Source: Candidatus Zambryskiibacteriota bacterium (GTDB lineage: Bacteria > Patescibacteriota > Minisyncoccia > Phycocordibacterales > Zambryskibacteraceae). From it: DNA of 57,165 nt. This document shows positions 20,552 to 50,490 of the stretch, piece after piece. The stretch spans positions 1-57,165 of the forward strand of contig JACPAD010000005.1 in assembly GCA_016180955.1 (NCBI GenBank), in the 5' to 3' direction. Position 1 is the first letter of the stretch. Each line of letters opens with the position of its first letter. The position numbers and the translations under genes were made by a program. The notes below the pieces were generated by a model. That model was not told where the DNA came from. It saw nothing but the letters and a program-made list of their open reading frames with translations, and ran no database searches.

Positions 20552-20560
20552 AAAATTCAC

Positions 20561-20671: not shown

Positions 20672-20825
20672 AGAGAAGCTTCGTGCGAAATATCGCCCAT
20701 GCCACTGCCTCTAGATTCACCGGCTAGCGAATTTCAAAGCTGTATCTGATTCGGAGTCCTGCTCCTTAATATTTCACACCAACTATTTCTTTTTTTTGAT
20801 ACCGAATATCGGTATTCATCTATCA

Positions 20826-20869
20826 CTCCAAACCTTAGTCTGGAATGCCAATAGATTATTTAAATTATA
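20826..20869 (-). promoter_or_regulatory. TR1 RNA promoter and conserved 5' leader motif
   Basis: Minus-strand TATAAT (20864-20869) and AATAAT (20855-20860), then GACTAAGGTTTGGAG (20826-20840), shared with DGR2. Confidence 0.6.
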
Positions 20870-20871
20870 AC

Positions 20872-20904
20872 AAAAAGAGCGCCCCGATGTGAATCGAAGC
20901 GCCC
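20872..20904 (-). terminator. Terminator after DGR1 target
   Basis: Minus strand GGGCGCTTCGAT-TCAC-ATCGGGGCGCTC-TTTTT (G-U containing 12-bp stem plus U tract). Confidence 0.7.
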
Positions 20905-20951
20905 GTGACCTCCTTTCAGAGTATCTTCCACCTGAGGCGGAGTCAAAGGGT

Positions 20952-21448
20952 CTAGTTGCGAGAAACCACCCGATAGCCAGCGCTCCACCTGTTCGGGCTC
21001 GCCACGGAGTCAGCGCGGACGTGACAGCCGCCGTCGTCGGCGTTCCAGCCCGCGTTCACGGCCCGCGGTTTGCTGCGAGGAACGCTCGGAACTGGCTCGC
21101 GCTCGTCTCGGCCTTGTCGCCGAGTTCAGCCATGATGGGAGCGTCGAGCGAGGCTTCTTCGAGCTTACAAACTGCGAGCTCGACTTCTTCCGTCGCCGTC
21201 ACTTCGAGGCTGTAGAACTGGTTCTCGAAGTTCGAGCCCGTGAGTTTGACTCCCGCTTCCGCGAAGTATTCCTTGGAAGTGGTAACCGCCGGCTCTGCCG
21301 CGACTTTCACGGTGCGGAGGAGAGTGAGAATCGTCTCGAAGACAATCTTGCCCTGCCCGCCGATGAAGCGAAGGAAGTTGTCCCAACCGCCCATGCGGTT
21401 GATGCATGCTTCCGTTTGTCCACTGGTTACGTCTGGATACTTAGCCAT
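20952..21448 (-). pseudogene. DGR1 target protein, frameshifted at the VR 5' border
   Basis: The 130-aa ORF stops at TGA 21056-21058; the VR-encoded C-terminus is in a different frame ending at TAG 20952; GAGGAG SD upstream. Confidence 0.85.
20954..21064 (-). repeat. DGR1 variable repeat (VR1)
   Basis: 111-bp copy of TR1; encodes AVNAGWNADDGGCHVRADSVASPNRWSAGYRVVSRN*. Confidence 0.95.
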
Positions 21449-33133: not shown

Positions 33134-33592
33134 CTACTTGCTCTTAATTTCGAGAAACGTTCCTCTACGTCCGGGAATTGCACCGCTAATGAAGATTTCT
33201 TTTGTCTCCGGAAGAATCTTCACTACGCGAAGATTTTTGACTGTTACTCTTTCCCCGCCCATGCGGCCGGCCATGCGCATACCCTTGGCCACCTTGCCGC
33301 CGGCGCGTCCGCCGCCCCCAATCGAGCCCGGCTCGCGCTCGGAGTGTTTCTGCCCGTGCGAGCGCGGGCCACCTTTGAAGCCATGCCGCTTCACCACGCC
33401 TTGGAAACCTTTGCCCTTCGAGATACCGGAAACGGAAACAATATCGCCTTCTTTCAAGACCCCCTCCGCCTGCGGCACCTCCCCCTTGGCAAGGGGGAGA
33501 TTGGTGGGGGTCTCAAGTACCACCAAAGTCACCGGCTCGACTACGCCGGAATCAGAAAAGATTTGGGTCATGTTTATTTTCTTGGCTTTCAT
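33134..33592 (-). CDS. rplC: 50S ribosomal protein L3 (internally shortened, with a palindrome insertion)
   Basis: KKINMTQIF, KGKGFQGVVKRHGF, GMRMAGRMG, GAIPG; only 152 aa. Confidence 0.93.
   Translation of the reverse strand: MKAKKINMTQIFSDSGVVEPVTLVVLETPTNLPLAKGEVPQAEGVLKEGDIVSVSGISKGKGFQGVVKRHGFKGGPRSHGQKHSEREPGSIGGGGRAGGKVAKGMRMAGRMGGERVTVKNLRVVKILPETKEIFISGAIPGRRGTFLEIKSK
33458..33499 (+). repeat. 42-bp palindromic element inside rplC
   Basis: GACCCCCTCCGCCTGCGGCACCTCCCCCTTGGCAAGGGGGAG; 38/42 identical to the reverse complement of 45931-45972. Confidence 0.85.
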
Positions 33593-33611
33593 CTACGGCG
33601 AATGGGTCGAA

Positions 33612-34007
33612 CTATACCATTTTGACGTCGATATTAACACCCGAAGGCAATGACAAGTTAGTCAGCGCCTCTATTACCTTCTGAGAAGGATTCACGATAT
33701 CGATAAGCCGTTTGTGGATTCGCATTTCGAATTGTTCTCGCGCATTCTTATACACGAACGCCGCGCGATTTACCGTGTAAATTTTTTTCTCCACAGGCAG
33801 CGGGACAGGGCCCACTACCTTTGCATCGTAGCGGAGAGCAGTATCCATAATCTGTTTGACCGAAAGGTCGAGAATCTTGGATTCGTAGGCACGAACTCTG
33901 ATGCGCAGTCGGGAGATTACTTCTTCAGTCTTGGCCTTTTTCAAGGTCTTTCCTGCCCGGCCTGCCTTCGAGGCAGTCGGGTTAAGTTTTGACGGAACTT
34001 TCGCCAT
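33612..34007 (-). CDS. rpsJ: 30S ribosomal protein S10 with N-terminal extension
   Basis: RLRIRVRAY, GPVPLP, AREQFEMRIHKRLIDI. Confidence 0.96.
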   Translation of the reverse strand: MAKVPSKLNPTASKAGRAGKTLKKAKTEEVISRLRIRVRAYESKILDLSVKQIMDTALRYDAKVVGPVPLPVEKKIYTVNRAAFVYKNAREQFEMRIHKRLIDIVNPSQKVIEALTNLSLPSGVNIDVKMV

Positions 34008-34013
34008 TGTTGA

Positions 34014-35207
34014 TTAGGCGACTATTTTGGTTACCACTCCTGCGCCGACGGTTTTGCCGCCTTCGCGAATGGCGAAGCGTCGCTGCTCTTCGAGAGCGAC
34101 CGGAGCGACCAACTTCACCTTAAAGGTTGCCGTGTCGCCGGGCATGACCATCTCAACGCCTTCAGCTAGAGCCACTTCGCCCGTGACGTCGGTGGTACCA
34201 ATGTAGAATTGCGGTTTGTAGCCAGTAAAGAACGGGGTGTGGCGGCCGCCTTCTTCTTTCTTCAGAACATAAACCTCGGCGCTAAACTCGGTGTGAGGAG
34301 TGATTGAGCCCGGCTTGGCCAATACCTGGCCGCGGTGGAGGTCTTCTTTCTTGGTGCCGCGCAGAAGTATGCCGGCATTGTCTCCGGCCACGCCCTCCTG
34401 AAGCGACTTATTGAACATTTCGATGCCGGTAATAGTCGTCTTCATCGTATCTTTGATGCCGATGATCTCGACTTCTTCGCCAACTTTAACTTTGCCTCGT
34501 TCAATCCTGCCGGTAACCACTGTGCCGCGGCCTTCGATAGAGAAGATATCCTCGATAGGCATGAGGAACGGCTTGTCAAGGTCGCGGACCGGAATCGGAA
34601 AGTAAGTGTCGAGAGCGTCGGTAAGCTCAAGAATCTTTTTGGACCATTCATCGTCTATACCAGAGGCCTCAAGGGCTTTAAGGGCCGAGCCCTGGATAAC
34701 CGGAGCGTTGGCGCCATCGTATTCGTATTTCTTGAGAAGGTCGCGAACCTCTTCCTCCACGAGAGCGATGAGTTCTTTGTCACTGACCTGATCGCATTTG
34801 TTGAGAAAGACGACGATCTTCGGCACCCCGACCTGCTTTGCCAATAGGATATGCTCTCTGGTTTGAGGCATCACGCCGTCAGTGGCGGCGACCACGAGGA
34901 TTGCGCCGTCCATCTGGGCGGCGCCAGTGATCATATTTTTGATGTAGTCAGCGTGTCCCGGAGCATCAACGTGCGCGTAGTGGCGCGCATCGGTTTCGTA
35001 TTCGGAGTGATGGAGAGAAATGGTAATACCTCGGGCTTTCTCTTCCGGAGTATTGTCAATCTGACCAACATTCTCTAGCTTCACTTTTTTGCCTGCGCGG
35101 TTAAGCACATTCAAAATTGCGGCGGTGAGAGTAGTCTTGCCGTGATCAACGTGTCCAATGGTACCGACGTTGATGTGCGGCTTGGAACGATCAAATTCTG
35201 CTGCCAT
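34014..35207 (-). CDS. tuf: Elongation factor Tu
   Basis: [28 protein letters not shown]. Confidence 0.99.
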
Positions 35208-35443
35208 ATGTTTAGTTTAGTAAGGTTAATAAGGTGATAAGGTAATAAATTTTCCTGAAACAAAGAAAGCGCGCGAGAACCTTTGCTTTCTCCGGTTCAA
35301 GAGCGCGCTAAACCATAAAAACGTCCTATTGAGACAATCCTCAAAGAGCATTAAACGGTATAACGCGTAAGCGCCATATTATACAAAGGTCTGGGAAATG
35401 TAAAGGGCCGGGTTCCGTTAGGAACTCCGGCCCTCCTTTTACT

Positions 35444-35472
35444 ACTATACACCTATTTCATATAAAAGTCAA
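35444..35472 (-). promoter_or_regulatory. sigma70 promoter upstream of tuf
   Basis: TTGACT-17-TATAGT, followed by a GC hairpin at 35404-35434. Confidence 0.7.
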
Positions 35473-35558
35473 GGATTTTGAGATAAAACCCTTATTTGAA
35501 GTCATTTTATTAAAACTTCAGCTTGTTACATTTCGCAAGAACCGTTCTTGCGAAAGTT

Positions 35559-37715
35559 TTATTTACTTCCTGTACGTGCCTCGATTATGGTTTGTGCCAC
35601 ATTAGTCGGAACGACAGCGTAGTGGTCGAACTCCATAGTTGAGGAGCCGCGGCCTTCGGTCATGGAACGCAGTGAAGTAACATAACCAAACATTTCGGAG
35701 AGAGGCACTTTGGCCCGGACCACTTTGAGCTCGCCTCTGTCTTCCATCGCCTCGATCTGCCCGCGTTTGCCGCTCAAATTCCCGGTAATATCGCCCATAA
35801 ATTTCTCCGGTACAACCACTTCTATCTTCATGATTGGTTCGAGAAGCACCGGCTTGGCGCGTCTGGCCGCTTCTTGGAACGCTTGCGAGGCGGCAATCTT
35901 GTAAGCAATCTCGGAAGAGTCGACATCGTGGTATGAACCGTAATTAAGCTCGCAGGAAATGTCGGTCATTTTATAGCTTGCCAAGATTCCCCTGTCCATC
36001 GCTTCTCTTACACCCTTCTCAACTGCCGGAATAAACTCTTGAGGTATGACACCTCCCTTAATGGCATTAACAAATTCAAATCCCGGCTCTCGATGCGCAT
36101 TCTTCGGTATTTTCTCTTCCGGGTCATAATGAGGCAAGGGCTTAATTTTGATTTTGACGTGACCATACTGGCCCTTGCCTCCGGTCTGCTTGATGTATTT
36201 ATTTTCCACCTCCGCTTCACCTTGAATGGTTTCTTTGTAAGCCACTTGCGGTTTGCCGACATTGGCCCCCACTCCGAACTCGCGCTTCATGCGGTCGACG
36301 ATAATTTCCAAGTGGAGTTCTCCCATGCCCATGATGACCGTCTCGCCGGTCTCTTGGTCTGATTTAATTTTGAAAGTCGGGTCTTCGTCGGAGAGGCGCT
36401 TCAAAGCCATGCCCATTTTTTCCTGATCGGCTTTGGTCTTCGGCTCAATACGGAGCGAGATAACCGGTTCGGGGAAAGTTATCTCTCCGAGAATAATCGG
36501 ATTATCCTCATCGCAAAATGTATGAGAGGTCTTAGCTTCCTTAAGGCCTACTGCCGCGGCAATTTCGCCGGCAAAAACTTTTTTCACTTCTTCACGCTGG
36601 TTGGCCTGCAAGCGTACGATGCGACCCAATCGCTCTTTGGTTTTGGTTGTAGAGTTGTATAAGTAAGTGCCGGACTCAATGGTGCCGGAATAAACGCGGA
36701 AAAATGTCAGTTGGCCGACAAAGGGATCCGCTTGTAGTTTGAAGGCAAGTGCGGAGAATGGTTCATCATCGGAAGCGTGCCTTTCTATCTCTTCGCCTGT
36801 ATTGGGATCTACGCCCTTGACCGGCGGGATATCGAGAGGAGACGGTAGGTAGTCGACAACGGCATCGAGCACAAGCTGGACACCCTTATTCTTCAAAGCC
36901 GAGCCGGTAAAGACTGGGAAAACTTTATTTTCTATCACTGCTTCGCGGAGAACTTTCTTCAGACTTTCGATATCAATCTCCTTGCCTCCCAAGTATTGGT
37001 GCATGAGCGCTTCATCATTCTCTATAATTCTCTCAATAAGTTCAGTGCGATATTTTTCTGCATCCGCTTTGAGATTTTCGGGAATTCCTGCCTGCGCAGA
37101 CAGGTCTTTTTCAACTACTTTATTGCCAGTATCACCCTCGAAGTAGTAAGCCTTCATTTTTAGAAGATCTATGATACCCTCATGCTTTTCTTCTTCGCCG
37201 ATTGGGATTTGCATGCGCACGGCTTTTTTGGAGAGACGATTGAGAATGGATTTGTATGAGCGCTCAAAGGAAGCACCTGTTCGGTCAAGCTTGTTGATGA
37301 AGCAAATGCGCGGCACTTTGGCCTCTTCTGCATAGCGCCAATTAGTCTCAGACTGCGGCTCAACGCCCGCCACGCCGTCGAAAACTACCACTGCTCCGTC
37401 GAGCACACGCAGAGAGCGTTTTACCTCGACGGTAAAGTCAATGTGGCCTGGAGTATCGATGATATTGAAACGATATTTTTGGTCTCCGTCAGTTTTTTGC
37501 CAGAAGCAAGTGATAGCGGCAGCCGTGATAGTAATGCCTCGTTCACGCTCCTGTTCCATCCAGTCGGTAGTAGTATCCCCCTCGTGCACCTCACCGATTT
37601 TGTGCTGAGAACCGGTATAGAAAAGTACGCGTTCGGAAGTAGTGGTCTTCCCCGCGTCGATATGGGCAATGATGCCGAAGTTTCGAACTCGTTCTAATGG
37701 ATAATCCCGTTGCAT
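35559..37715 (-). CDS. fusA: Elongation factor G
   Basis: [31 protein letters not shown]. Confidence 0.99.
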
Positions 37716-37742
37716 AAATTATTTATAGTGAGCACAGTCGAA

Positions 37743-38213
37743 CTACCAAGCAAAATGCGCAAATGCTTTGTTGGCTTCCGCCATCTTATGAGTATTTTCA
37801 CGCTTTCTAACTGCGTCACCTTCGTTATTGGCAGCTGCGATGATTTCTTCCGCCAGTTTTTCTGCCATCGGCTTGCCCTTTTTGGCGCGGGCGGCGTCGA
37901 TAATCCATTTCATGGAGAGAAACTGGCGTCTCTCCGGTCTTACTTCGCGAGGGATTTGATAGTTAGCACCCCCGACGCGGCGAGAGCGCACTTCCATTGT
38001 AGGACCGGTATTTTTAAGTGCTGTTTCAAATATTTCTAGAGGATTCTGATTTTTGGTTTTCTCCTTGATGACGTCAAAAGAGGTGTAAATAATTTTCCGC
38101 GCAATCGCCTTCTTGCCTTCCTGCATGACATAATTAATAAACTTTGACACCCTTTCAGAGTCATAGGCGTAGTCGGGAGTTAGTTTTGGTTTTGTCTTAA
38201 GTTTTCTTCGCAT
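37743..38213 (-). CDS. rpsG: 30S ribosomal protein S7
   Basis: [24 protein letters not shown]. Confidence 0.98.
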
Positions 38214-38245
38214 TATTCTTAAATCTTAAATCCTGAATCTTAAAT

Positions 38246-38659
38246 CTACTTCCTCTTCGGCTTCTTCGCTCCATACTGGCTCCTCGCCTGCTTTCTATTC
38301 TCGACACCGGTGGCATCAAGCACGCCGCGCACAATAGTATAACGGAGCCCGACGTCCTTCACGCGACCGCCACGCAAGAGTACTACCGAGTGTTCCTGCA
38401 AATTATGGCCAATCCCCGGGATATAAGCCGTTACTTCCATGCCGTTAGTCAAACGCACACGAGCAATCTTTCTAATAGCGGAGTTAGGTTTCTTGGGAGT
38501 CTTGGTAGTCACTTTGGTAGCCACACCTCTTTTGAATGGCGCATTGAAAAAGACGGGGCGGTTTTTGAGAGTGTTGAAGCCACGTGTCAAAGCGACCGCC
38601 TTGGTTTTGCGGGAGAGCTTCTTTCTTTTCCTTTTGACTAGCTGATTAATAGTTGACAT
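38246..38659 (-). CDS. rpsL: 30S ribosomal protein S12
   Basis: [29 protein letters not shown]. Confidence 0.98.
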
Positions 38660-38689
38660 TTACAAAAATACTCCCAAGGGGAGAGAAAT

Positions 38690-38718
38690 ACTCTACTAAA
38701 ATAAAAGCGTAAATGCAA
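38690..38718 (-). promoter_or_regulatory. Promoter of the str operon
   Basis: TTGCAT-17-TAGAGT. Confidence 0.6.
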
Positions 38719-38719
38719 A

Positions 38720-38746
38720 TGGGCCGCTCGCTACGCGAGCGGCCCA
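38720..38746 (-). terminator. Terminator after the 40-aa peptide gene
   Basis: TGGGCCGCTCGC-N3-GCGAGCGGCCCA, 12-bp stem. Confidence 0.65.
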
Positions 38747-38750
38747 AAAG

Positions 38751-38873
38751 TTATCGATTCCAATGGGGCTGTAGTGGCGCGTAGGCGAGCGCCATTACTG
38801 CAAGACAGAGAAGACCGACAGCAACTGCCACAAGTAGCAGCCAGTCACAGTTCTCGTCAAACCATTTGATCAT
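38751..38873 (-). CDS. 40-aa single-TM peptide (absent from ORF track)
   Basis: MIKWFDENCDWLLLVAVAVGLLCLAVMALAYAPLQPHWNR*; GAGGTA SD; TTGACA-17-TACAGT promoter at 38891-38919. Confidence 0.65.
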   Translation of the reverse strand: MIKWFDENCDWLLLVAVAVGLLCLAVMALAYAPLQPHWNR

Positions 38874-38922
38874 ATTTTACCTCTTTTATTACTGTACATT
38901 TAAACTTAATTTTTGTCAATAA

Positions 38923-39522
38923 CTATAATGAAACCCCCGTAATAAGACGGAAAAATAACACTACTAAAGGAAAGAGGAACTGCCAGAGGAAAAAGATGAA
39001 AAAAAGGAGAAGAATGAGCCCATATCGTTCGAAAAGTCCTCTTAATTCGACAAATCTCTCCGGAAAGAGGGCGAAGAGTATTTTAGAGCCGTCGAGAGGA
39101 GGGACAGGTATAAGGTTAAAGAGAGCAAGGAGGATGTTAATAAAGACTAAAGCACTGGTAACTTCAATGAGCGCAAGATTCGTCGGACCAGTACGTAGAA
39201 AGAGTCCGAAGATGAGCGCCACGACAATGTTTGAAAACGGTCCGGCGCCAGCGACAATCGCTTCCGAGAACCTACCGGGGCGCAGATTGTACGGATTATA
39301 AGGCACAGGTTTAGCCCAACCGATGATAAAGCCACCGAAACTATAAGAAAGGAACGGAATTAGGAAGGAGCCGACAGGATCGAGATGTTTAAGAGGATTA
39401 AGAGTGAGTCTCCCTTGATAGCGCGCCGTCTCATCGCCCAAGTAACTTGCCGCATAGCCGTGCGAGACCTCATGAATGACCACCGACATGATGAGAATGG
39501 CGATTTGAAATAGGAATTCCAC
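38923..39522 (-). CDS. Site-2 protease (M50 family)
   Basis: HEVSH, AGP..N, FNLIPVPPLDG; GTG start 6 nt after TATACT. Confidence 0.93.
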   Translation of the reverse strand: MEFLFQIAILIMSVVIHEVSHGYAASYLGDETARYQGRLTLNPLKHLDPVGSFLIPFLSYSFGGFIIGWAKPVPYNPYNLRPGRFSEAIVAGAGPFSNIVVALIFGLFLRTGPTNLALIEVTSALVFINILLALFNLIPVPPLDGSKILFALFPERFVELRGLFERYGLILLLFFIFFLWQFLFPLVVLFFRLITGVSL

Positions 39523-39542
39523 TCTGATAGTATAACGCAGCA

Positions 39543-39785
39543 ATGGCCAAAGTATGTCCGGTACTAAATAAGGGTTCCAAGATCGGCGGGGGCTACTCCA
39601 ACAGGACTCGCGCTACCCAATTTAACCCCACTGGATTTATCAGGAAGTATCCCAATCTCCAGAAAAAGCGCATTTACGTTCCAGAGCTCAAAAAAACTCT
39701 GACCCTCACCCTTTCTACCCGCGCTTGGAAGACTATCTCCAAACGCGGCGCTCACAGTGTTCTCAAGAAAGCCGGGGTTATTTAA
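39543..39785 (+). CDS. rpmB: 50S ribosomal protein L28
   Basis: MAKVCP..K....G..SN...R...PNLQKKR.....L.LS.R..KT. Confidence 0.88.
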   Translation: MAKVCPVLNKGSKIGGGYSNRTRATQFNPTGFIRKYPNLQKKRIYVPELKKTLTLTLSTRAWKTISKRGAHSVLKKAGVI

Positions 39786-39788
39786 GAC

Positions 39789-40655
39789 TCACTTAAGACG
39801 CAATATTTCTCCATCTGTTTCGAATTTTATGGTGCCAATTTCGGCGGTGCTGAGGATTTTCGCGCTCACTCGTTCTAGGATATTTAAAACTTCCTTGTGT
39901 GGGTGGCCGTAAGTGTTGTCGCGGCCAGCGGAGATGACGGCATACTCCGGAGATACTGCTCCGGCATAAGTAAGCGAAGTAGAAGTGCGCGAGCCGTGGT
40001 GGCCTGTTTTCAAAACATCTGAATCCAGAAGTTCTGAATTTAAATTAAGCAAAATGTTTTCCGCTTTTATGGTCGAGTCGCCGGTCAGAAGAAAAGAACT
40101 GTTGCCATATTCGAGCTTAGCCACTATTGAAGCTTCATTAGTATCCCAGTTTGAAACGTCGCGGTCAGGGAAAAGAACGGTAAGTTTTGCTCCGTCGCCG
40201 AAATTAACTATCATTCCCCTTCTGGCGAGAACCTCCGGAATATTTTTCTCTTTCACCCTCTTTTCCAATTCATTATCCAGAGTATTGTCGGATTCAACGC
40301 CTGATTGGAAGATTAGCCCGACATCATAGCGACTCACCACTTCCGGCAAACCGCCGATATGGTCTGCGTCCGGATGCGTGGCGATGATAACATCGATAGC
40401 TTTATCGCCAAAAGACATTATTTTACCCAGTTCTGAAATTACCTTGCGATTCTTGCCGCCATCTATGAGCATCTGTCGCTTGTTCGGAGTCTCGATAAAG
40501 ATCGCTTCTCCCTGTCCAACATCGAGAAAGTAGACCTTGAGCAAACCCGTCTTATTTTGGTATAAAATGAGCCAGATGAAGATATTGGCGGCAAGAAGGC
40601 CGATTAAAATGTACTCCTGCCAATATCTTAAGGTATAATTTTTATATGAAAACAT
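39789..40655 (-). CDS. ComEC/Rec2-type metallo-beta-lactamase fold protein
   Basis: FLDVGQGEA, THPDADHIGG, LTGD, LKTGHHGS, YGHPH. Confidence 0.92.
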   Translation of the reverse strand: MFSYKNYTLRYWQEYILIGLLAANIFIWLILYQNKTGLLKVYFLDVGQGEAIFIETPNKRQMLIDGGKNRKVISELGKIMSFGDKAIDVIIATHPDADHIGGLPEVVSRYDVGLIFQSGVESDNTLDNELEKRVKEKNIPEVLARRGMIVNFGDGAKLTVLFPDRDVSNWDTNEASIVAKLEYGNSSFLLTGDSTIKAENILLNLNSELLDSDVLKTGHHGSRTSTSLTYAGAVSPEYAVISAGRDNTYGHPHKEVLNILERVSAKILSTAEIGTIKFETDGEILRLK

Positions 40656-41179
40656 TTGAAGAAAAAAAGTTTAATATCCCTAAGCTTAAAGGAATAAGCG
40701 AGAAAAATATAGAAGAGCACTTGAAGCTCTATGCCGGCTATGTCAAAAACGTTAATGAACTATTGAGCGAGAAGGAATATAATCGCCGCTTTCCATTTGA
40801 ATTTAACGGCATGAGAAATCATGAGGTTTACTTCTCGCATTTCGAAGGGGGTTCGACTCCGCTCACTCCAGGCGGTCCTCTCATCCAAGCTGGGTTTGAC
40901 CTAGAGAGGTTTAAGAAGATAGCTCTCACCCGCGGAATAGGTTGGGCCATGCTGTATTACGATAGAGCTTCAAAACAACTCATACACAGTTGGGTAGATG
41001 AGCAACACTTAGGCCAACTCTCCGGCTGTACTCTGATTCTGGCGCTCGATATGTGGGAGCATTCTTATGTCGCTGATTATCAGCCTAGCGGCAAAAAAGA
41101 TTATGTTGAAGATTTCTTTGTGAATTTAAATTGGGGAAATGTAGAAGAGAATTTTATAACTGCCACAAAAATTAAATAG
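40646..41179 (+). CDS. Fe/Mn superoxide dismutase (compact)
   Basis: EEHLKLY, NHEVYF, DMWEHSY metal ligands. Confidence 0.9.
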   Translation: MKTFEEKKFNIPKLKGISEKNIEEHLKLYAGYVKNVNELLSEKEYNRRFPFEFNGMRNHEVYFSHFEGGSTPLTPGGPLIQAGFDLERFKKIALTRGIGWAMLYYDRASKQLIHSWVDEQHLGQLSGCTLILALDMWEHSYVADYQPSGKKDYVEDFFVNLNWGNVEENFITATKIK

Positions 41180-42525
41180 ACCGAAATTACTATCCAGATA
41201 GAAACGAGTGGAGTTTTTATTGTCGCGAAGAAAAGATTACCGAGTGTATGGGAAACAAGCAGAATCCAAGAAAGTAATATGTGCGAGACGTATGCCAGAG
41301 GCCAAGCGATGATGGTGCTGACAAACGCAACAAGCGTAGCAAGAAACCCCACAAGCATTGTGTACGGGACGATGAGGAGGATGAGCATATTGGCGGGAAT
41401 AGAGACCAGGGAGACATCTCCGCTCATATAAATAAGGAGCGGGAGCACCATAAGCTGTGTGGCAAGCGTTTGCGAGAGAATTTCTCTGATCTTGAGGCGT
41501 TGGGTTACCCGAGTTAATCTTTTCTCAATCGGCGGCATGAAGTAGATAAGGCCAAGAGTGGCGAGGAAAGAGAGTTGGAAGGAGGGATCGAAAATAAGGA
41601 TCTTGGGATTGTGGATAATCATGAGGCATGCCGCAAAGATAAGAGCCCGCGGGGCGGAATACTTCCTGCCGAAAAGCTTGGCGCTGGTCGCAACTCCTGC
41701 CATGATGGCCGCCCGCACGATGCTTGCCTCCGCTCCCGTCATAATGACGAAAAGAATTATGCCTATAAGCGGAATTTTGTTGCTTTTGGAAACTCTTCTT
41801 AGAAAATCCGCTATCAAGGTGATGTTAAATCCGGAAAGCACCACGATATGGATCACGCCGGCGCGGCGGAATTCTTCAAGAATATCTTTCGGCAACGCTT
41901 CCCTGCCGGAAACAATCAGCCCCATGAGTAAACTGGCGTATGGTTCGGCCAAAATTTCTTTGGCTTTTGCCACAAAGCTTCTTTTGAGTTTAAAAAGGGC
42001 TGATTTTAGAGAATTGCCGTGCCCGCTTGATAAGATTTCTACTTTCGCGAAACTCAGGGTGTAATAAATGTCGTCTTTAGCCAGATATTTGCTGTAATCA
42101 AACGGCCGAGCGCCATTTTCCTCTTCAATAATTCCCGGCTTTTCCAGTTTGCCATCCACTTCCACTCTATCTCCATACTGTACCGGGCTATAAAGCGGCG
42201 CGGAAACTAAAATCTTTTCATTATTATCGGATAAATACACAAATCTTCTGAAATTATCTTTGTCTTCAGGTTCACTTACTACGATACCCGTAGACGCCGG
42301 CTTGAGTGGCTCGTGGAAATCTTTAATAGAGTAGCGCAGAGCACCTAGGCTGAAAGAAATTAAGATAACGGACAGTAAAATAACTTCTTTATTTCTCTCT
42401 GGTATAAGAATGACGGCCCCGACAATTAAAATCAAAACAGAAATAAGCGGCGGAAGAAAAATAAACGACGAAAGAGCGATACCGGAGGCGAAACTAAAGA
42501 TAGCGATAAGAATTGCGCGGCCCAT
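41101..42525 (-). CDS. comEC: ComEC/Rec2 competence membrane channel
   Basis: HIVVLSGFN, TGAEASIVRAAIM, SFQLSFLAT, PAN. Confidence 0.93.
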   Translation of the reverse strand: MGRAILIAIFSFASGIALSSFIFLPPLISVLILIVGAVILIPERNKEVILLSVILISFSLGALRYSIKDFHEPLKPASTGIVVSEPEDKDNFRRFVYLSDNNEKILVSAPLYSPVQYGDRVEVDGKLEKPGIIEEENGARPFDYSKYLAKDDIYYTLSFAKVEILSSGHGNSLKSALFKLKRSFVAKAKEILAEPYASLLMGLIVSGREALPKDILEEFRRAGVIHIVVLSGFNITLIADFLRRVSKSNKIPLIGIILFVIMTGAEASIVRAAIMAGVATSAKLFGRKYSAPRALIFAACLMIIHNPKILIFDPSFQLSFLATLGLIYFMPPIEKRLTRVTQRLKIREILSQTLATQLMVLPLLIYMSGDVSLVSIPANMLILLIVPYTMLVGFLATLVAFVSTIIAWPLAYVSHILLSWILLVSHTLGNLFFATIKTPLVSIWIVISVYLIFVAVIKFSSTFPQFKFTKKSST

Positions 42526-42973
42526 TATATAAATCGATAGTTAGTCCGTCGGCGAAGCTGGTGGCAATCTCGTCAGAGCGTTCGTTAGCTTTGTCTCCAT
42601 TGTGTCCTGCTACATATTTCCATTCAATCTGCTGACCTTCGGTAACCAGAAGAAGCATTTGCCATAAATCTTTATTTAAAACCTGCTTTTTCCCCGCAGT
42701 TTTCCAGCCTTTTTTCTGCCAATTCTTGACCCAAAGCGTGATACCCTTCATGACATATTCAGAATCTGTATTGACTTGTATTTCTGAAAATTGAAAATTG
42801 TTAATTGCAAATTCAAGCGAGCGTATCACAGCTGTCAATTCCATGCGATTGTTGGTCGTGTGAACTTCATCCCCGCCTATCTCCATCACTCTCTCTTCGC
42901 TCGCGATAATCCCTGCCCATCCTCCCGGTCCGGGATTCCCCCTCGCCGCCCCGTCTGTGTAGATGGTTACCAT
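42494..42973 (-). CDS. rnhA: Ribonuclease HI
   Basis: YTDGAARGNPGPGG, TTNNRMELTA, TDSEY, VAGH....NERSD. Confidence 0.96.
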   Translation of the reverse strand: MVTIYTDGAARGNPGPGGWAGIIASEERVMEIGGDEVHTTNNRMELTAVIRSLEFAINNFQFSEIQVNTDSEYVMKGITLWVKNWQKKGWKTAGKKQVLNKDLWQMLLLVTEGQQIEWKYVAGHNGDKANERSDEIATSFADGLTIDLYNGPRNSYRYL

Positions 42974-43967
42974 TTGTAAATTATATCATCTACAGATTTC
43001 CTTATTTTGTAAGTATTCCCGTGTTTCAACATTCCTAAATACGAAACCAGCGATTCGGAAGAAAATTTTTCACTCAATCTTTTAAACATTCTTCTTTTTG
43101 TCGATGTTCTCAACACTCTATGGCCAGGGAAATACACCCAACCCAGAAAATCCACTCCGGAGGATAAAGTTTTTATAAAGACCTTGTCTGGATGAAAAGA
43201 AAGTTTGAGCTTGTTTGCTAGAAACTTTTCAAGAGCAGTGAGTAAAAGTGTTAAATACTGGCGGTCGCTGGTAAAAAAGACGAAATCATCAGCGTAACGT
43301 ATGTAATACTTTATTTTGAGATTATGTTTCGCGAACTGGTCAAATTCATTCATGTAGATATTGACTAAAAGCTGGGAAGTGAGGTTGCCAAGAGGCAAGC
43401 CTTTGCCAGGCACAGAATGGAAACTTTCTATTATCTGGGTTATAAGCCAATTAACATCTTCATCTGGAATGTATTTTGTAACGATATATCGTAGTGAATT
43501 GTGGTCGATAGTGGCGAAGAATTTCTTGATATCACACTTAAGTATCCAGCATTGCTTGGTGTTGTTCTTGGAGACTTTGCGGGAGAAAGACTTAAATTTC
43601 TCCATGGCTTTATGCGTACCTTTGTTTAGTCGGCAAGAGTAGGAATCGAAAATAAACTTCTTATCGAAGTAGGGATAAAGAATTCTATAGATAGCATGGT
43701 GCAAAAGCCTGTCCCGGACGGAAGCTTTGTGGATATTCCTAGGCTTGGGATCGGAGATGTTGAAAGTGTGGTAAGCGGAGTGCTTATATGTCTTATTTTT
43801 CAAATCTTCGTGTAGAGAAATAATGTTATCCATCAAGTTTCTCTGGAAAAGCTGGACATCTCTTCTCTTTCTCTTGCCATTCAGGAATTCCTGCCAAGCT
43901 TCGAGAAGATTTTCGAGCGAGATGATATCATCGTATGTATGAATACACCTTTTAAAGCCCCCCCCAA
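42967..43967 (-). CDS. DGR reverse transcriptase 2 (true start upstream of the ORF-track start)
   Basis: YIRYADDF intact; the frame is open upstream through HTYDDIISLENLLEAW; TTG 43967 is in frame only with G9 (G8 here), otherwise only CTG 43980 or ATT 43944 are available. Confidence 0.9.
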
Positions 43968-43973
43968 CGGATT

Positions 43974-44321
43974 TTGCCAGTCTTTGTTTATCTCAAGGAG
44001 TTGTATATTATCTGGCATCTCAAGTTTTATAAATTCCCGAAGAATTCGCGATTCTCAATAGGTATAAAGATTGACTCTTTGTTCGTGGAGACAATAGAAG
44101 AGGTAGCTCTGGCCAGTTTTACGCAAGATTCAGAAAAAATGGCGCATATCAAACAAGCTCTAAGTCTAACAGATACCTTGAAGATATTTCTACAAATCGC
44201 ATGGGAATTGAAACTTCTCGAAGTAAAGCATTATGCGGAAATATCAGAGAAAATGGATGCTGTGGGGAAAATGCTGGGTGGATGGTACGGACAAACTTTC
44301 AAACAAAACCACGTGAGATAG
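43974..44321 (+). CDS. avd: DGR Avd-like protein 2, antisense to TR/RT
   Basis: FPKNSRFSIGIKID, LQIAWEL, VGKMLGGW; TTG start as assembled, ATG 43939 in frame with C9. Confidence 0.87.
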   Translation: MPVFVYLKELYIIWHLKFYKFPKNSRFSIGIKIDSLFVETIEEVALASFTQDSEKMAHIKQALSLTDTLKIFLQIAWELKLLEVKHYAEISEKMDAVGKMLGGWYGQTFKQNHVR

Positions 44322-44341
44322 TATTTCTACATCTCACGTGG
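44309..44341 (-). promoter_or_regulatory. Conserved hairpin 3' of TR2
   Basis: CCACGTGAGAT...ATCTCACGTGG, 11-bp stem overlapping the avd stop; 9 nt from the TR end, as in DGR1. Confidence 0.78.
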
Positions 44342-44350
44342 AAATAAACA

Positions 44351-44487
44351 TATTTGCGGAGACGAAACACGACCTCGTTCTCAAGATTCCACTTGTCATC
44401 CGGATTCGTTCAGTTGGTGTTGAGCCACGTCTTGCCGTCATCGTTCCGGTTGAGTTTGAACACGTACGGATTGCCGTCGGAATCGGT
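44351..44487 (-). repeat. DGR2 template repeat (TR2)
   Basis: 15 mismatches versus VR2, 13 at TR adenines; contains an in-frame TGA at 44410-44412. Confidence 0.95.
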
Positions 44488-44615
44488 TGTGTGCATTAAT
44501 CCGCCAAAGCCACTGCCCTTCAAATGTTCGATAGGCTGAATCTTATCCGTGATCGTAATCACTTAGAGAAATGCACCAAGTTTGTTTATTTTTTAGTTAT
44601 TTTATAATCACTCCG

Positions 44616-44649
44616 CTCCAAACCTTGGTCAGAAACGCTCTCGATTATA
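44616..44649 (-). promoter_or_regulatory. TR2 RNA promoter and conserved 5' leader motif
   Basis: Minus-strand TATAAT (44644-44649), then GACCAAGGTTTGGAG (44616-44630). Confidence 0.65.
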
Positions 44650-44720
44650 AAATACTGGATTCGGCAGCAGGAAACCTGAGTCGTCCGCATATTCGCCTAG
44701 TACCGAAATAATTTTCATAC

Positions 44721-44751
44721 AAAAACGGCGTGTGCACAAGTGCACACGCCG
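44721..44751 (-). terminator. Terminator after DGR2 target
   Basis: CGGCGTGTGCA-CTTG-TGCACACGCCG-TTTTT. Confidence 0.8.
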
Positions 44752-44807
44752 GTAATTCAAGTGATTCAAGGGACCGAAGCCTTAACCGAAGTCCGAAGAA
44801 CCAAAAC

Positions 44808-45476
44808 CTACTTGCGGAGACGAAACACGACCTCGTTCTCAAGATTCCACCGGTCATCCGGATTCGTTCAGCTGGCGTTGAGCCACGTCTTGCCGTCATC
44901 GAACCGGTGGAGTAGGAACACGTCCGGATAGCCGAAGGAAGCGGTGATCTGCTTCATGGCCGTCCAGCAGACGGTTCCCTTCGGCTGATCCTTCCATTCC
45001 CGACGGAGAGCGGGCCCATCGCCAGGTTCGCAGAGTGCGTGGCCAAGTTCTTCGATCCGCTTCCAGAGTTCGCGGGTCGTCGGCGGTTTGGTGAAGCCGA
45101 GGTCGCGGACCGAGGACTTGCCGAACCTGACGGTCTCCTTATTGCCCGGCTTCCACGCGTCCTTCCCCATGATGTTCCGTGAGTACTCGGAGGCGAACAT
45201 GCCGTTCGCTTCGATCTCCGCGACGAGCTCATCCTTGGACTTGCCACCGACCTCGATCTCGAGGAAGACCGGGAACACCGGCCCTTTCTGCGAGAACTGG
45301 CGGATGAGTTCGCGGAGTGCCGGCGCGACCGCCGGATTCTCGTTGAAGTACTGACCGCAGTCCTCATCGAGAGCGACGGCATTGTACGCGTCGCGGAAGA
45401 GATCGGTTGCCTGTCGACCCTTGCGGCTATCAGCCGTGAGACCAGACGCTTTCAACGTTTTCGACGTCGACATCAT
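44808..45476 (-). CDS. DGR2 target protein, prematurely stopped at TGA 44868-44870 inside the VR
   Basis: AAGGA SD before ATG 45476; 202 aa to the TGA; the frame continues TNPDDRWNLENEVVFRLRK* to TAG 44808. Confidence 0.88.
44809..44945 (-). repeat. DGR2 variable repeat (VR2)
   Basis: Copy of TR2 at offset +458. Confidence 0.95.
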
Positions 45477-45537
45477 CTTTATCCTTTCTCTAGCTGTCCT
45501 GATGCGGGAAACCCGCACTCATCAGCTATCTTTACAT

Positions 45538-45566
45538 ATTATACACCCAAACAGGTTTTATGTCAA
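45538..45566 (-). promoter_or_regulatory. Consensus sigma70 promoter of DGR2 target
   Basis: TTGACA-17-TATAAT. Confidence 0.85.
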
Positions 45567-45587
45567 GGACACCTATTTTACTCTTAT

Positions 45588-47267
45588 TTATGGCTCTATA
45601 TTAACAATTCTTAGGCGAAGTTCCGGGCGGTTTCTGAAATAGGATTTCTCTAAGTGGGCGTGGAGGGTGCATTGGGTGGATTTAGGATTTAGGAAGTACG
45701 ATTCAGGAGAGGAGAAGAAGGAGATGGCTTTGATGCCATTCGATAAACTCAATTCTAAGTGATTATTTTCTTTGCCGAACTGGCGGATATTTTTTATCGG
45801 AGCATTCGAGATTTTAAAAATCGGTTTTTCGTTACCAGTACCAAACGGCGCAAATTGAGAAACCGTTTGCCAAAGATTTTCTCCAATATCAGCAAGAGAA
45901 ACATGCAGTGCCCTCTCCACCCCCACCAGCCTCCCCCTTATCAAGGGGGAGGCGCCGAAGGCGGAGGGGGTCGGTGAGGTCAGTTTTGCAAGAGCGCTGG
46001 ATAATTTTTCTTCCAAAGTTGTCAGTTGCTCCAGTGTGACGGAGAAACCGCCCGCACCGGCATGTCCTCCAAACTCGGTGAAAGATTCTTTCGCGCCTTC
46101 CATAAGTTGGAAAAGGTCATAGCCATTATATGAGCGGCATGAACCCTTGAGCATATTGTCTCCATCCCGTCCCCAAACGAAAACCGGCCGCAAGTATTCT
46201 TCTACCAAAGAGTTGGCAACCAATCCCGCCAAGGCGGGACGCCACTCCGGATTGCCAATAACAATCACTTCCGGCAGACTTTCCCGTTTAGACAACTCTG
46301 ACTTGGCTGCTTTGACGATGCTTGCCACCATTCCTTTGCGTTCATTATTGATTCTCTCGAGATGCTCGGTTAATTTTTCCGCCTCAACTTGATTATCGGT
46401 TGACAGAAGTTTGAAAGCGTCTTCCGGCCTGCCCATGCGTGAAGCCGCGTTGATGCGCGGCGTAATCATAAATGCCACATCATCTTCAGAAAGGGTACGT
46501 GGGTCAAGATTCAGTTTCTTAAAAAGACTAGCTAGGCCAGCACGCGGCGACTTGCGTAGCACCTCAAGCCCGAAGCGAGCGAGGATTCTATTTTCATCAA
46601 TAAGCGGCACTAAATCCGAAAGCGTGGCAATACCTACCATATCAAGCGACCATTTCTCCATACCCGCTTTAACACCGAATGATTCTTTGGTGAGAACTGC
46701 TTGCACCAACTTGAAAGCGGTAGCGGAACCGCATATCCCCTTAAATGGGTAAAGACTATCTGCCCGTTTAGGATTAACGATAGCAAAGGCTTTCGGCAAA
46801 GTTTCGGGTGGTTCATGGTGGTCAGTAATGATGACATCAATACCTTTTTCATTAGCGAGAGCAATTTCTTCTGCGTCGGAGATACCGCAATCGATAGTAA
46901 CGATTAATTTCGCTCCGCGTAGAGCACACTCTTCAATCGCTTCTGTATTTAATCCGTAGCCTTCGTCGTGCCGATGCGGGATATAGAAAGAAATATTTCC
47001 GTACTTAATGCGTTTGAAAAAGTCCGAGAGCACCACCGCGCCCGGGATACCATCTGCGTCATAATCGGAGAAAACAACTATGTGCTCGTTACTCTTGATT
47101 GCTTCAATAACTCGATCGCGAGCTTTCTTTATGTCGGGCAAGAGAAGCGGGTCATGAAGCCGCGCGTAGTCAGGATTGAGAAAATGGTCTTGAGACGAAT
47201 GGTCTAGGCCACGCTCTTTTAGCAGCAATTCGAAAATTTCCGGGAAACTGGTGCCGGCGATAGACAT
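45588..47267 (-). CDS. recJ: ssDNA exonuclease RecJ
   Basis: DYDADG, PHRHDEGYG, TDHH, GTLSD-like motif, PRINAASR, GSCRS, FGGHAGAGG. Confidence 0.95.
   Translation of the reverse strand: MSIAGTSFPEIFELLLKERGLDHSSQDHFLNPDYARLHDPLLLPDIKKARDRVIEAIKSNEHIVVFSDYDADGIPGAVVLSDFFKRIKYGNISFYIPHRHDEGYGLNTEAIEECALRGAKLIVTIDCGISDAEEIALANEKGIDVIITDHHEPPETLPKAFAIVNPKRADSLYPFKGICGSATAFKLVQAVLTKESFGVKAGMEKWSLDMVGIATLSDLVPLIDENRILARFGLEVLRKSPRAGLASLFKKLNLDPRTLSEDDVAFMITPRINAASRMGRPEDAFKLLSTDNQVEAEKLTEHLERINNERKGMVASIVKAAKSELSKRESLPEVIVIGNPEWRPALAGLVANSLVEEYLRPVFVWGRDGDNMLKGSCRSYNGYDLFQLMEGAKESFTEFGGHAGAGGFSVTLEQLTTLEEKLSSALAKLTSPTPSAFGASPLIRGRLVGVERALHVSLADIGENLWQTVSQFAPFGTGNEKPIFKISNAPIKNIRQFGKENNHLELSLSNGIKAISFFSSPESYFLNPKSTQCTLHAHLEKSYFRNRPELRLRIVNIEP
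45931..45972 (-). repeat. 42-bp palindromic element inside recJ
   Basis: Minus strand GACCCCCTCCGCCTTCGGCGCCTCCCCCTTGATAAGGGGGAG, read as TPSAFGASPLIRGR. Confidence 0.85.
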
Positions 47268-48592: not shown

Positions 48593-48652
48593 TTCACCTC
48601 ACCCGCTCTTCGACGAGCTCAGAGCACCTTCTCCTAGGCGTAAGGAGAAGGT
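48593..48652 (+). repeat. BoxC-like palindromic repeat, copy A
   Basis: ATTCACCTCACCC-GCTCT..AGAGC-ACCTTCTCCT-AGGCGTA-AGGAGAAGGT. Confidence 0.75.
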
Positions 48653-48687
48653 AAATTGACAATGATTAAAAATTCTATATTCTTTCT

Positions 48688-49032
48688 ACAGATCAGGAGA
48701 GACACGGGAATGTCTGATGGTACCTATTAAGTAACTCCGTGGGCGGACCGGAAGCCCGGTCTAGCACTCAGCTTCCAGATAAACGCGGGTGAGGAATCGG
48801 TTCTCGATTTCGAATACCAGAATCGGTTTGGGGCCCGATTTAAGACAAGACTGGGAGAAGACAAGAACCTGGCCACGGGCCAGCTGAGTCTCGAAAGTCT
48901 CTCTGATGGGTGGGCGGCGCTCTCCTGGAGCGGAGGTTGTGGACATGTAATACTGCATAGGTCCAATGCAGAGCCTGCAACCTCAGTTCCCGACCACACT
49001 CTGGCTGTCGCACAAATTGCGACGGCTTTTTT
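48688..49032 (+). ncRNA. Candidate structured RNA of unknown class (alternative: small minus-strand ORF 48761-48946)
   Basis: TTGACA-16-TATTCT promoter (48656-48683), many hairpins, 5'/3' pairing, terminator 49004-49032. Confidence 0.35.
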
Positions 49033-49093
49033 ATTCACCTCACCCGCTTCTCGATTTACTCGAAGCACCCTCTCCTAGACGTAAGGAGAGGGT
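49033..49093 (+). repeat. BoxC-like palindromic repeat, copy B (overlaps the DUF559 3' end)
   Basis: ATTCACCTCACCC-GCTTC..GAAGC-ACCCTCTCCT-AGACGTA-AGGAGAGGGT. Confidence 0.75.
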
Positions 49094-49420
49094 TTGTTTT
49101 ATATGTTTGATTACTTTTTCTAAATTATTTTTAATTTCCTGGTTCTTTATTCTTGCCGTCTGATAACCCAATTCCTTAAAATATTTATCTCTTATAGCAT
49201 CGTATTGTTTATCGTGAGATTTACTATCGAGTTCAATAATCAATCTCGCCTTGAAGCAGTAAAAATCGAGAATATATCCGCCAATGCTATGCTGTCTTCT
49301 GAATCTGCATCCAAGCTTGTTGTTTCTCAGTTCATTCCACAGTATTTCTTCTTCTGGAGTAGAAAATTTTCGTAATTCTTTTCTTCTTTCCAGCAGTTTT
49401 TTGGAATTATGAACTTTCAT
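49040..49420 (-). CDS. DUF559 / Vsr-like endonuclease domain protein
   Basis: LRKFSTPEEEILWNELR..FRRQHSIGGYILDFYC...IIELD...HD..RD. Confidence 0.9.
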   Translation of the reverse strand: MKVHNSKKLLERRKELRKFSTPEEEILWNELRNNKLGCRFRRQHSIGGYILDFYCFKARLIIELDSKSHDKQYDAIRDKYFKELGYQTARIKNQEIKNNLEKVIKHIKQTLSLRLGEGASSKSRSG

Positions 49421-49426
49421 TGATAT

Positions 49427-49467
49427 GCACCCCTCTCCTTACGTCTAGGAGAGGGGTTGGGGTGAGG
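49427..49467 (-). repeat. BoxC-like palindromic repeat, copy C (upstream of DUF559)
   Basis: Minus strand ACCTCACCCCAACCCCTCTCCT-AGACGTA-AGGAGAGGGGTG. Confidence 0.75.
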
Positions 49468-50490
49468 TTATTTAAGAGCCTCGATTCCAGGCAATGTACC
49501 CGCAGCGAGAAATTCGAGCATGGCGCCGCCGCCGGTTGAAACGAAAGAAAACTTGTCGAGAGTACCGAGCTCGTCTATCGCCGCCAGCGTATCGCCTCCG
49601 CCAACGATGGATTCATGCCCGAATTCCGCAATTAATCCAGCTAGAGCGAGGGTGGATACTTTATAACCAATCTCATAGTGGCCTAAAGGACCGTTCCAAA
49701 GAATGAGCTTCGCGCCCGATATTTTCGATTTCAGATTCTCCAGAGTTCTGGGACCAACATCAAGAATCCGGCCATGCTCCACGATAGTATCTTCCGGCAA
49801 GATAATCTTGCCGGTCTTTAAAAGCTCTGGAAGACTAAACTCGCCCTCACTTACCAGTGAACTACCCACATCCTTCCCTTGTTCCTTGAAGAAATTATTG
49901 GCCAGAGCTCCACCAACAAAGATTTCGTCCGCGATATTGACGAACTTTTTCAAAAGCGGCAGCTTAGTATCAAATTTCGCGCCGCCCAGGATAAAGAGAA
50001 ACGGATGCTTGGGATAGAAGGCTTTGGAAAGCTCTTTGATCTCAAGTGCGAGCCGCAAGCCGGCAAAGCTGGGGAGAATCTTCGGCACTCCCACGATAGA
50101 GGCGTACCGGCGATGAGACTCCGGAAACGCTTCGTTGACAAACACGTCCCCCCGACTTGCCAGTTCGCTGACAAAACTTTTCGAATTAGCTTTCTCGCCT
50201 TTATTAAAACGCAGATTTTCAAGAAGCATTAGGTCGCTCGGCTCGATAAACGTCAAAGGAAGGAGGCTCTTAACGTGCTCGAATATAGGAAGAAGCGACT
50301 GGTCGTCTCTTTCCGCATGGCTTAGAAGAATTATCTTAGCTCCCGCTTTTTGCAGATATTCTATAGTTGGAAAGGTCTTCCTAATCTGGTAATCATTTAT
50401 GACCTTGCCGTTTTGCGTCGGCACGCTCCAGTCCACCCGCATCAGAACGCGTTTACCCTTCAAGTCCCTCGCTTCAGTGACGGGTCTCAT
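49468..50490 (-). CDS. pgk: Phosphoglycerate kinase (compact, 340 aa)
   Basis: LKGKRVLMRVD, LLENLRF, GGAKFDTK, WNGPLG, GGGDT, STGGGA. Confidence 0.95.
   Translation of the reverse strand: MRPVTEARDLKGKRVLMRVDWSVPTQNGKVINDYQIRKTFPTIEYLQKAGAKIILLSHAERDDQSLLPIFEHVKSLLPLTFIEPSDLMLLENLRFNKGEKANSKSFVSELASRGDVFVNEAFPESHRRYASIVGVPKILPSFAGLRLALEIKELSKAFYPKHPFLFILGGAKFDTKLPLLKKFVNIADEIFVGGALANNFFKEQGKDVGSSLVSEGEFSLPELLKTGKIILPEDTIVEHGRILDVGPRTLENLKSKISGAKLILWNGPLGHYEIGYKVSTLALAGLIAEFGHESIVGGGDTLAAIDELGTLDKFSFVSTGGGAMLEFLAAGTLPGIEALK

Follow-up and report, generated by a model that had tools for sequence, protein, structure and literature searches.

Among the short palindromic repeats of bacteria, those called BoxC, PIT or TMECO have been known since the 1990s, and we know of no origin, mover or function established for them. 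Their consensus has been given as CCCTCNCCC N3-6 GGGNGAGGG N3 GGGNGAGGG (Holder et al. 2015, PMC4666352). All 23 TMECO copies of E. coli MG1655 are intergenic, the configurations termed 'palindromic' are inverted TMECO copies on opposite strands, and the repeat has been tied to no mobile element or enzyme (PMC4666352, where earlier BoxC/PIT work by Bergler, Bachellier and Hoyne is cited). Here we analyse a 57,165-nt stretch of DNA (the window) from Candidatus Zambryskiibacteriota bacterium (assembly GCA_016180955.1, contig JACPAD010000005.1), in which rplC (ribosomal protein L3) and recJ each contain an in-frame copy of a palindromic element of 53–54 nt; a third, diverged copy is found in dnaG of the same genome. 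That the element is mobile DNA, kept in frame, is well supported. It is probably a non-autonomous repeat of the BoxC/PIT/TMECO type, derived from the ends of cassettes that encode a DUF559 nuclease, and tolerated and translated in loops of L3, RecJ and DnaG.

By its layout the element is best placed in the BoxC/PIT/TMECO group, and it is probably not by descent one of the Rickettsia palindromic elements (RPEs). In both the window element and BoxC/PIT/TMECO, pyrimidine and purine blocks of 9–10 nt follow one another, two of them forming a Watson-Crick hairpin and the next a mirror repeat; most loops are short, and copies are highly conserved, also across phyla (at least 119 exact stretches). 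The two differ in location, the window element residing in frame in rplC, recJ and dnaG whereas the E. coli repeats are intergenic. They differ also in that the 53-nt form has four blocks, its purine blocks set apart by an additional 12-nt hairpin, and in that the window element shares sequence with the ends of DUF559 genes.

RPEs, reportedly described by Ogata and colleagues in 2000, are about 100–150 bp long and confined to Rickettsia, and no partner protein for them is known to us. They are reviewed in PMC10969869. An earlier note on this DNA, which first pointed to the repeat, had likened it to RPEs, and in behaviour the likeness is real: both are palindromic repeats in frame in many unrelated, often essential protein genes, with reading frames left open, and both are kept, are presumably translated and encode no transposase. 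Size and host set them apart, the window element being 46–54 nt long, carried here by a member of the Patescibacteria, built of pyrimidine and purine blocks, present in many phyla and matched by the ends of nuclease cassettes.

Three further systems invite comparison. Like a miniature inverted-repeat transposable element (MITE), the window element has terminal inverted repeats and is a short non-autonomous form that shares its ends with a gene-bearing unit, here the DUF559 cassette; unlike in MITEs, no target-site duplication is seen, and DUF559 is not a known transposase. The DUF559 gene has inverted copies of its own repeat on both sides, and gene and repeat co-occur by genome, much as with repetitive extragenic palindromes (REPs), their paired form (REPINs) and REP-associated tyrosine transposases (RAYTs). 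However, the framed gene encodes a Vsr-fold PD-(D/E)XK nuclease and not a DDE or HUH transposase, REPs are extragenic whereas the window element is intragenic, and the RAYT-like genes of this genome carry other hairpins. Finally, Dassa and colleagues are said to have described Vsr-like and PD-(D/E)XK homing endonucleases in 2009. These too are small nucleases of the same broad fold, each the sole protein of a selfish element in or near essential genes, but each of them homes to a single empty allele and is carried by an intron or intein, whereas DUF559-type copies occur at many sites, have no splicing element and are mostly gene-less.

Element copies in rplC, recJ and dnaG

The genome of the window (G000) is a metagenome-assembled draft of 488 kb in 7 contigs, 85% complete, with the window as contig C6; other G-numbers (G005, G042 and so on) are labels of related genomes that were compared with it. 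Scores in the following list are from a covariance model built from the five full copies of the element.

33134-33592, minus strand: rplC, ribosomal protein L3, 152 aa (Pfam PF00297), in an S10-operon context
33458-33511, minus strand: element copy 1, in frame in rplC (81.4 bits)
45588-47267, minus strand: recJ, 559 aa, with DHH, DHHA1 and RecJ_OB domains
45919-45972, plus strand: element copy 2, in frame in recJ (85.8 bits)
contig C7, 21221-21293: third copy, diverged, in dnaG, its small hairpin swapped for a 20-nt palindrome, in the same frame as in L3

Once one of them is reverse-complemented, 33458-33499 and 45931-45972 are 38/42 identical in opposite orientations, as had been reported in the earlier note. 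The repeat described there as a 42-bp unit is thus real, but the true unit is 53–54 nt, since the match runs 12 nt further. Positions 33458-33511 and 45919-45972 form an inverted repeat of 54 nt (48/54 complementary; blastn and an inverted-repeat search of the window), the longest in the window. The core common to five copies is 53 nt, ACCCCC...GGGGGT, with base 54 variable in the alignment. When the window was shuffled 100 times, the pattern of the central hairpin never occurred, which excludes chance.

The minus strand encodes rplC and recJ alike, and the 54-nt element is oppositely oriented in the two. Read on the minus strand, copy 1 is ACCCCCACCAAT-CTCCCCCTTgccAAGGGGGAG-GTGCCGCAGGCG-GAGGGGGT(C), giving the peptide TPTNLPLAKGEVPQAEGV in L3, while recJ translates the reverse complement of copy 2 into TPSAFGASPLIRGRLVGV; the 42-nt part alone encodes LPLAKGEVPQAEGV in L3 and TPSAFGASPLIRGR in RecJ. 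Because the two orientations yield unrelated peptides, conservation is at the DNA level. The element is indeed stop-free in the frames used, yet this is weak evidence taken alone, because all six frames of the core lack a stop codon, a by-product of base composition. A further expectation, that coding copies would be multiples of three in length, failed: among the best order-wide matches cores are 46, 48, 49, 53 or 54 nt long, so a multiple-of-three length is not intrinsic to the element. That the frame is kept must be due to selection among insertions.

Block layout and folding

The five full copies, from four species, share the layout ACCCCCACC-nnn-CTCCCCCTT-nnn-AAGGGGGAG-G-(small hairpin)-GGAGGGGGT, in which two pyrimidine blocks are followed by a purine block, a small hairpin and a second purine block; differences among them fall mainly in the loops. 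Blocks 2 and 3 pair as a hairpin, both in the alignment and in the computed fold. Inspection of the alignment also reveals mirror repeats, formed by blocks 3 and 4 (AGGGGGAGG vs GGAGGGGGT) and likewise by blocks 1 and 2. The spacers between blocks 1 and 2 and between blocks 2 and 3 are 3 nt long. In the 53-nt form the 12-nt mini-hairpin separates blocks 3 and 4; the 48–49-nt forms have 5 nt there, and most copies from outside the Candidate Phyla Radiation (CPR) have 3 nt. The ends are inverted repeats (ACCCCCACC vs GGAGGGGGT, with 8/9 positions pairing), and the outer stem that they make covaries.

As single-stranded DNA, both strands fold to a three-way junction of outer stem, central hairpin (9–11 bp) and side hairpin (3–4 bp). 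Energies, computed for Watson-Crick pairing only, were −20 to −21.6 kcal/mol with z-scores of −3.7 to −5.1 (copy 1, −20.3 kcal/mol, z −3.7; copy 2, −21.5 kcal/mol, z −5.1). Across 102 distinct matches to the covariance model, 96% of cells were paired and 18 of 21 pairs were changed on both sides, vs 62–74% paired in a control with slid partners; the alignment of these 102 matches was fitted to the model and is therefore biased towards the structure. Compensatory changes (CG to UA) leave the 5' arm pyrimidine and the 3' arm purine.

Insertions in the host proteins

The rplC gene is single-copy in G000 and stands in the order rpsJ-rplC-rplD-rplW. The insert in L3 is located in a hypervariable loop, between VTLVV and EGDxVxVSG. 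This loop is 20 aa long in G000 vs 9 aa in the three nearest sister species, a net gain of +11 aa, and the element is missing from the L3 of all 22 sister species of the genus. In RecJ the insert (residues 433-450) occupies the linker between DHHA1 (336-427) and RecJ_OB (455-555). The nearest RecJ homologues, 78–79% identical, are 541–543 aa long vs 559, are without the insert and show a 14-column gap there in the alignment, for a net gain of +16 aa in G000. The best of them was 79% identical by MAFFT and 78% by BLASTP among 5.8 billion proteins, and the source names of the homologues are Candidatus Zambryskibacteria or Patescibacteria. Orthologues are therefore shorter in both cases, as the earlier note had anticipated. 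An AlphaFold model of RecJ has a mean predicted local distance difference test (pLDDT) score of 84.9, with values below 50 at residues 432-451, coinciding with the insert; modelled in this way, the 18 added residues appear to be a tolerated surface loop.

Clean indels of 14 aa, which had also been anticipated, or of 18 aa are ruled out by these two gains, by those in LigA (about +13 aa, with the insert present in G010 and absent in G005) and CysS (+7 aa), and by the lack of any gain in DnaG. The DnaG linker is hypervariable in every species, so that no indel is callable there. A few host codons were apparently lost with each insertion. Boundaries are uncertain by 1–2 nt, since the best RecJ homologue is only 79% identical and there is no closely related empty site.

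The L3 of the whole genus is short. Its open frames span about 146–215 aa and the mature proteins about 140–157 aa, whereas L3 in other families of the order has about 205–215 aa (loci L002-L030 and the window). Some 55–60 residues of the globular domain are missing between 'VTLVV' and 'VSGxSKGKGF', and palindromic inserts are located at that scar.

Spread across genes, genomes and phyla

Within the genus, matches to the element occur in 8 of 37 genomes, G000 and seven others. Full copies are in frame in CysS (G043), LigA (G010) and GatB (G020), and in G042 half a copy is found in a protein with an S1 domain. Such near-identical in-frame copies in unrelated housekeeping genes of different species, whose orthologues are without them, bear out the proposal of a coding-compatible mobile palindrome, and with the dnaG copy and the order-wide matches they supply the further copies on which that proposal depended. 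Throughout the order, matches were found in 42/401 genomes and 31/223 genera, with up to 13 match rows per genome. Gene-less copies, counted with opposite-strand duplicates and gene-adjacent matches removed, peak at 9 in G096 and 7 in G148. Among the 38 best unique matches, 29 are deep in open reading frames (ORFs) of at least 180 aa, in both orientations and several frames; this share is close to the coding density (∼90%), so the repeats are not excluded from genes in the order.

The exact block pattern was found in at least 119 stretches in many phyla, among them stretches from Cellvibrio, Photobacterium, Aeromonas, Clostridia, Fibrobacterota, Spirochaetota and several CPR classes. In this exact-block set a location deep in an ORF was seen for 17/23 CPR matches vs 18/62 from other phyla (p 4e-4). 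Viral contigs gave 0 exact block matches, leaving the idea of a viral carrier without support.

Members of the family were also noted at one and the same site in GatB, after EDTAKSxH, in two genera, where they differ in variant and frame (G020, locus L037; G201, locus L117).

DUF559 cassettes and their ends

Elsewhere in the window lies a small nuclease gene framed by repeats of similar build:

48593-48653, plus strand: gene-less copy of a subfamily-i end, 82% identical to 49029-49093, directly after a HIT-family gene
49033-49093, plus strand: DUF559 3'-side flank, with pyrimidine block ACCTCACCC, small hairpin, ACC and hairpin CCCTCTCCTagacgtaAGGAGAGGG
49040-49420, minus strand: DUF559 (Vsr-fold, PD-(D/E)XK-type) nuclease gene, 126 aa, subfamily i (Pfam PF04480, E 4e-31; PDB 3HRL 'endonuclease-like protein', E 2e-13)
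49428-49470, plus strand: DUF559 5'-side flank, with the central hairpin inverted (25 nt, 100% complementary to 49068-49092), then purine block GGGTGAGGT

The purine block GGGTGAGGT is the inverted partner of ACCTCACCC, and the 3'-side flank doubles as coding sequence for the C-terminal tail TLSLRLGEGASSKSRSG* of the DUF559 protein. By tblastn this is the sole DUF559 gene in the G000 assembly. The framing is general: within the genus, inverted copies of block and hairpin enclose every short DUF559 gene, the three DUF559 subfamilies each have their own block and hairpin sequence, and 23 further genera show the same framing principle around DUF559.

It is the gene ends of subfamily ii (G042, G005, G015) that carry the sequence of the rplC/recJ element: the copy in L3 agrees with the DUF559 3' end of G042 at 37/41 positions and with that of G005 at 38/43, and the DUF559 tail LLPAKGEVPKAEGVN* parallels LPLAKGEVPQAEGV of L3. 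The layout shared between the element and the DUF559-flanking repeats, which the earlier note had remarked on, therefore extends to close sequence identity in sister genomes, in addition to the inverted blocks around 49040-49420. G096 and G148, the genomes with most gene-less copies, each have a DUF559 gene with CCTCCCCCTT-type ends. Across the 401 genomes, DUF559 is present in 29/40 with gene-less copies vs 15/361 without (odds ratio 61, Fisher p 3e-24); copies adjoining DUF559 genes were left out of this test, and relatedness of genomes was ignored in it. A full-text literature search returned no paper tying DUF559 to repeats or mobility.

A remnant of a DUF559 C-terminus, decayed and on the minus strand (48602-48733), overlaps the gene-less end at 48593-48653. 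The 377 nt that follow (48654-49030) lie between two direct copies of the DUF559-type end and finish with a terminator-like hairpin and then a T run. They were considered as a decayed DUF559 gene and rejected, because past the first ∼85 nt the similarity is 46%, the level of shuffled sequence. This stretch gave no Rfam match even at E ≤ 1 and no credible ORF.

Complete DUF559 domains were observed within open frames of 540–1142 aa as well (for example G405:C9:70370-70681, G148:C44:12283-12582, G227:C26:12326-12637 and G313:C17:7061-7381), so that whole nuclease cassettes also appear in frame in larger host genes of the order.

Origin and movement of the element

We propose that the source would be cassettes of about 450 bp that encode a DUF559 nuclease alone and are framed by inverted blocks. 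The 53-nt form would be such a cassette with its interior lost between the two central hairpins, standing to it as a MITE stands to its transposon. Within the G000 lineage, copies would have landed in loops or linkers of L3, RecJ and DnaG, and would have survived where the net insertion kept the frame, the core being stop-free and the 18 extra residues being tolerated as a surface loop. There the element would be translated, as RPEs are. The loss of a few host codons per site, together with the lack of a visible target duplication, suggests that insertion may proceed through break repair. The DUF559 nuclease may itself recognise or cut the element ends and thereby multiply them, a step that we lean slightly against.

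Several observations weigh against this reading or against the nuclease as the mover. The indels are not clean, the net gain falling 2–11 codons short of the element length, and the DnaG linker is no longer than in orthologues, with no net gain at all. At 38 copies inspected there was no target-site duplication, no direct repeat and neither a shared flanking sequence nor a favoured target. Lineages differ in how the blocks are ordered with respect to the DUF559 gene, and so one internal-deletion scheme cannot fit all cassettes. The association by genome is incomplete, since 11/40 genomes with gene-less copies are without DUF559, and a DUF559 gene lies in 5/80 of the eight-kb loci around exact block matches. 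G000, G043, G010 and G020, all with full-length gene-less copies, have DUF559 of subfamilies i or iii only; the cognate subfamily ii was not found in the G000 assembly, which is 85% complete. Gene-less copies and DUF559 could both be tracking genomes rich in mobile DNA. We neither know of nor saw any enzymatic activity or cut site of DUF559. Then there is the wealth of other hairpins: counting stems of 10 bp or more and loops of up to 9 nt, perfect hairpins number 142 in G000 vs 2–9 in shuffles, about half of them (∼70) deep inside ORFs, and different palindrome families share the loops of L3, RecJ, LigA and DnaG. Lastly, G000 has three RAYT-like Y1 (HUH) transposase genes (C5:3257-4021, C5:8325-8987 and C3:36459-37145), which score just over the Pfam cut-off and have intact HUH motifs.

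Much of this would be expected if the repeat is mobile and kept in frame but is moved by something else, candidates being those Y1 transposases in trans or template switching at hairpins during replication and repair, with DUF559 homing into or nesting between pre-existing repeats. The three Y1-like genes with intact HUH motifs would supply a mover, and many of the 142 hairpins are unique palindromes needing no dedicated one; the full-length gene-less copies in genomes without the cognate subfamily, the 11 genomes with no DUF559 and the sharing of loops by several palindrome families fit a general hairpin-directed process. We consider this rather unlikely all the same. Two of the Y1-like genes adjoin REP-like hairpins of their own that are unrelated to the 53-nt element, one lying between two related TTTCGCAAGAACCGTTCTTGCGAAA-type hairpins and the other having AATATCAAGGGCTACCCTTGATATT just upstream. 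Template switching cannot put one and the same 53-nt sequence into genes that are unrelated and belong to different species, the flanking sequences change in step with the DUF559 subfamilies, and the co-occurrence of copies with DUF559 is strong.

The inserts are very probably translated rather than removed, judging from the host frames. Ribosome bypass has parallels in the GC-rich 'byp' elements of Magnusiomyces mitochondria and the gap in T4 gene 60, and a hairpin as strong as this could stall ribosomes. Yet the host frame is open across every intragenic copy examined, which would be needless if the element were skipped or removed from the mRNA. The net insertion always preserves the frame although cores vary from 46 to 54 nt, neither intron-like features nor take-off and landing codon features are present, and rplC is single-copy, leaving absence of the insert from the proteins very improbable. 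That no mobile DNA is involved, and that the copies are alike through selection on a peptide module, through gene conversion between the two genes rplC and recJ, or through an artefact of this 7-contig metagenome assembly, can be dismissed with near certainty, since the two orientations encode unrelated peptides, the same 53 nt recur in other genes of other species in independent assemblies, and the reading frames are intact.

With derivation from DUF559 cassette ends as the preferred reading, the locus offers DUF559 as a candidate partner enzyme for BoxC-type repeats. In-frame residence in essential CPR genes is a lifestyle not described for such repeats and is comparable to that of RPEs. For CPR annotation and alignment, hypervariable linkers in replication and ribosomal proteins may be what is left of such elements. 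More tentatively, and with real doubt, DUF559 and BoxC/triplex repeats may together be an unrecognised class of mobile element, in which the nuclease, specific for structure, would act on the folded pyrimidine/purine-block ends of its own unit and break repair would seed gene-less copies. In ultra-small CPR genomes, where intergenic space is nearly absent, the copies would survive mainly as translated loop inserts in essential proteins (L3, RecJ, DnaG, LigA, GatB, CysS), again and again overwriting one another at the same permissive sites. If so, element copies would be a main source of variation in linkers.

Other palindromes and repeats

A second element of ∼42 nt with two hairpins (AAAGGTCAGACCTTAAGTACTGATTCCCAAGGTCTGACCTTG, peptide KGQTLSTDSQGLTL) sits in the L3 loop of about 10 sister species (noted at loci L005, L007, L010, L011, L012 and L016). 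It is exact in three species and has at least one substitution in the rest, and it also occurs in the RecJ linker of another organism (P0016) and in the DnaG linker of G014 (L154). In ligA of G000 (C7:41705-41747) we noted a unique perfect palindrome of 43 nt with a 21-bp stem, in frame and encoding STEARPMFNIGLASV. This palindrome lies at the loop where the LigA of G010 carries the 53-nt element, and the LigA of G005 has nothing there. Shared loops of this kind could come from a strong selective filter that leaves few permissive loops, or resident hairpins could be attracting the next insertion.

Small recurrent hairpin families were seen elsewhere in G000, for example GAAGCYCGGCTTCC..GGAAGCCGRGCTTC, CCACTTGGCGGTCCAACCGCCAAGTGG and AGGGTGTCGACCTGGCAGGTCGACACCCT. 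A copy of the TTTCGCAAGAACCGTTCTTGCGAAA-type hairpin lies between tuf and fusA in the window (35531-35555).

Two paralogous regions of the window, 19480-21064 and 43274-44952, share a 300-nt repeat at 81% identity. Each has in addition a nearby pair of repeats at 87% identity (20561-20671/20954-21064 and 44346-44494/44804-44952), and the layout of the two regions is that of the template and variable repeats of a diversity-generating retroelement.

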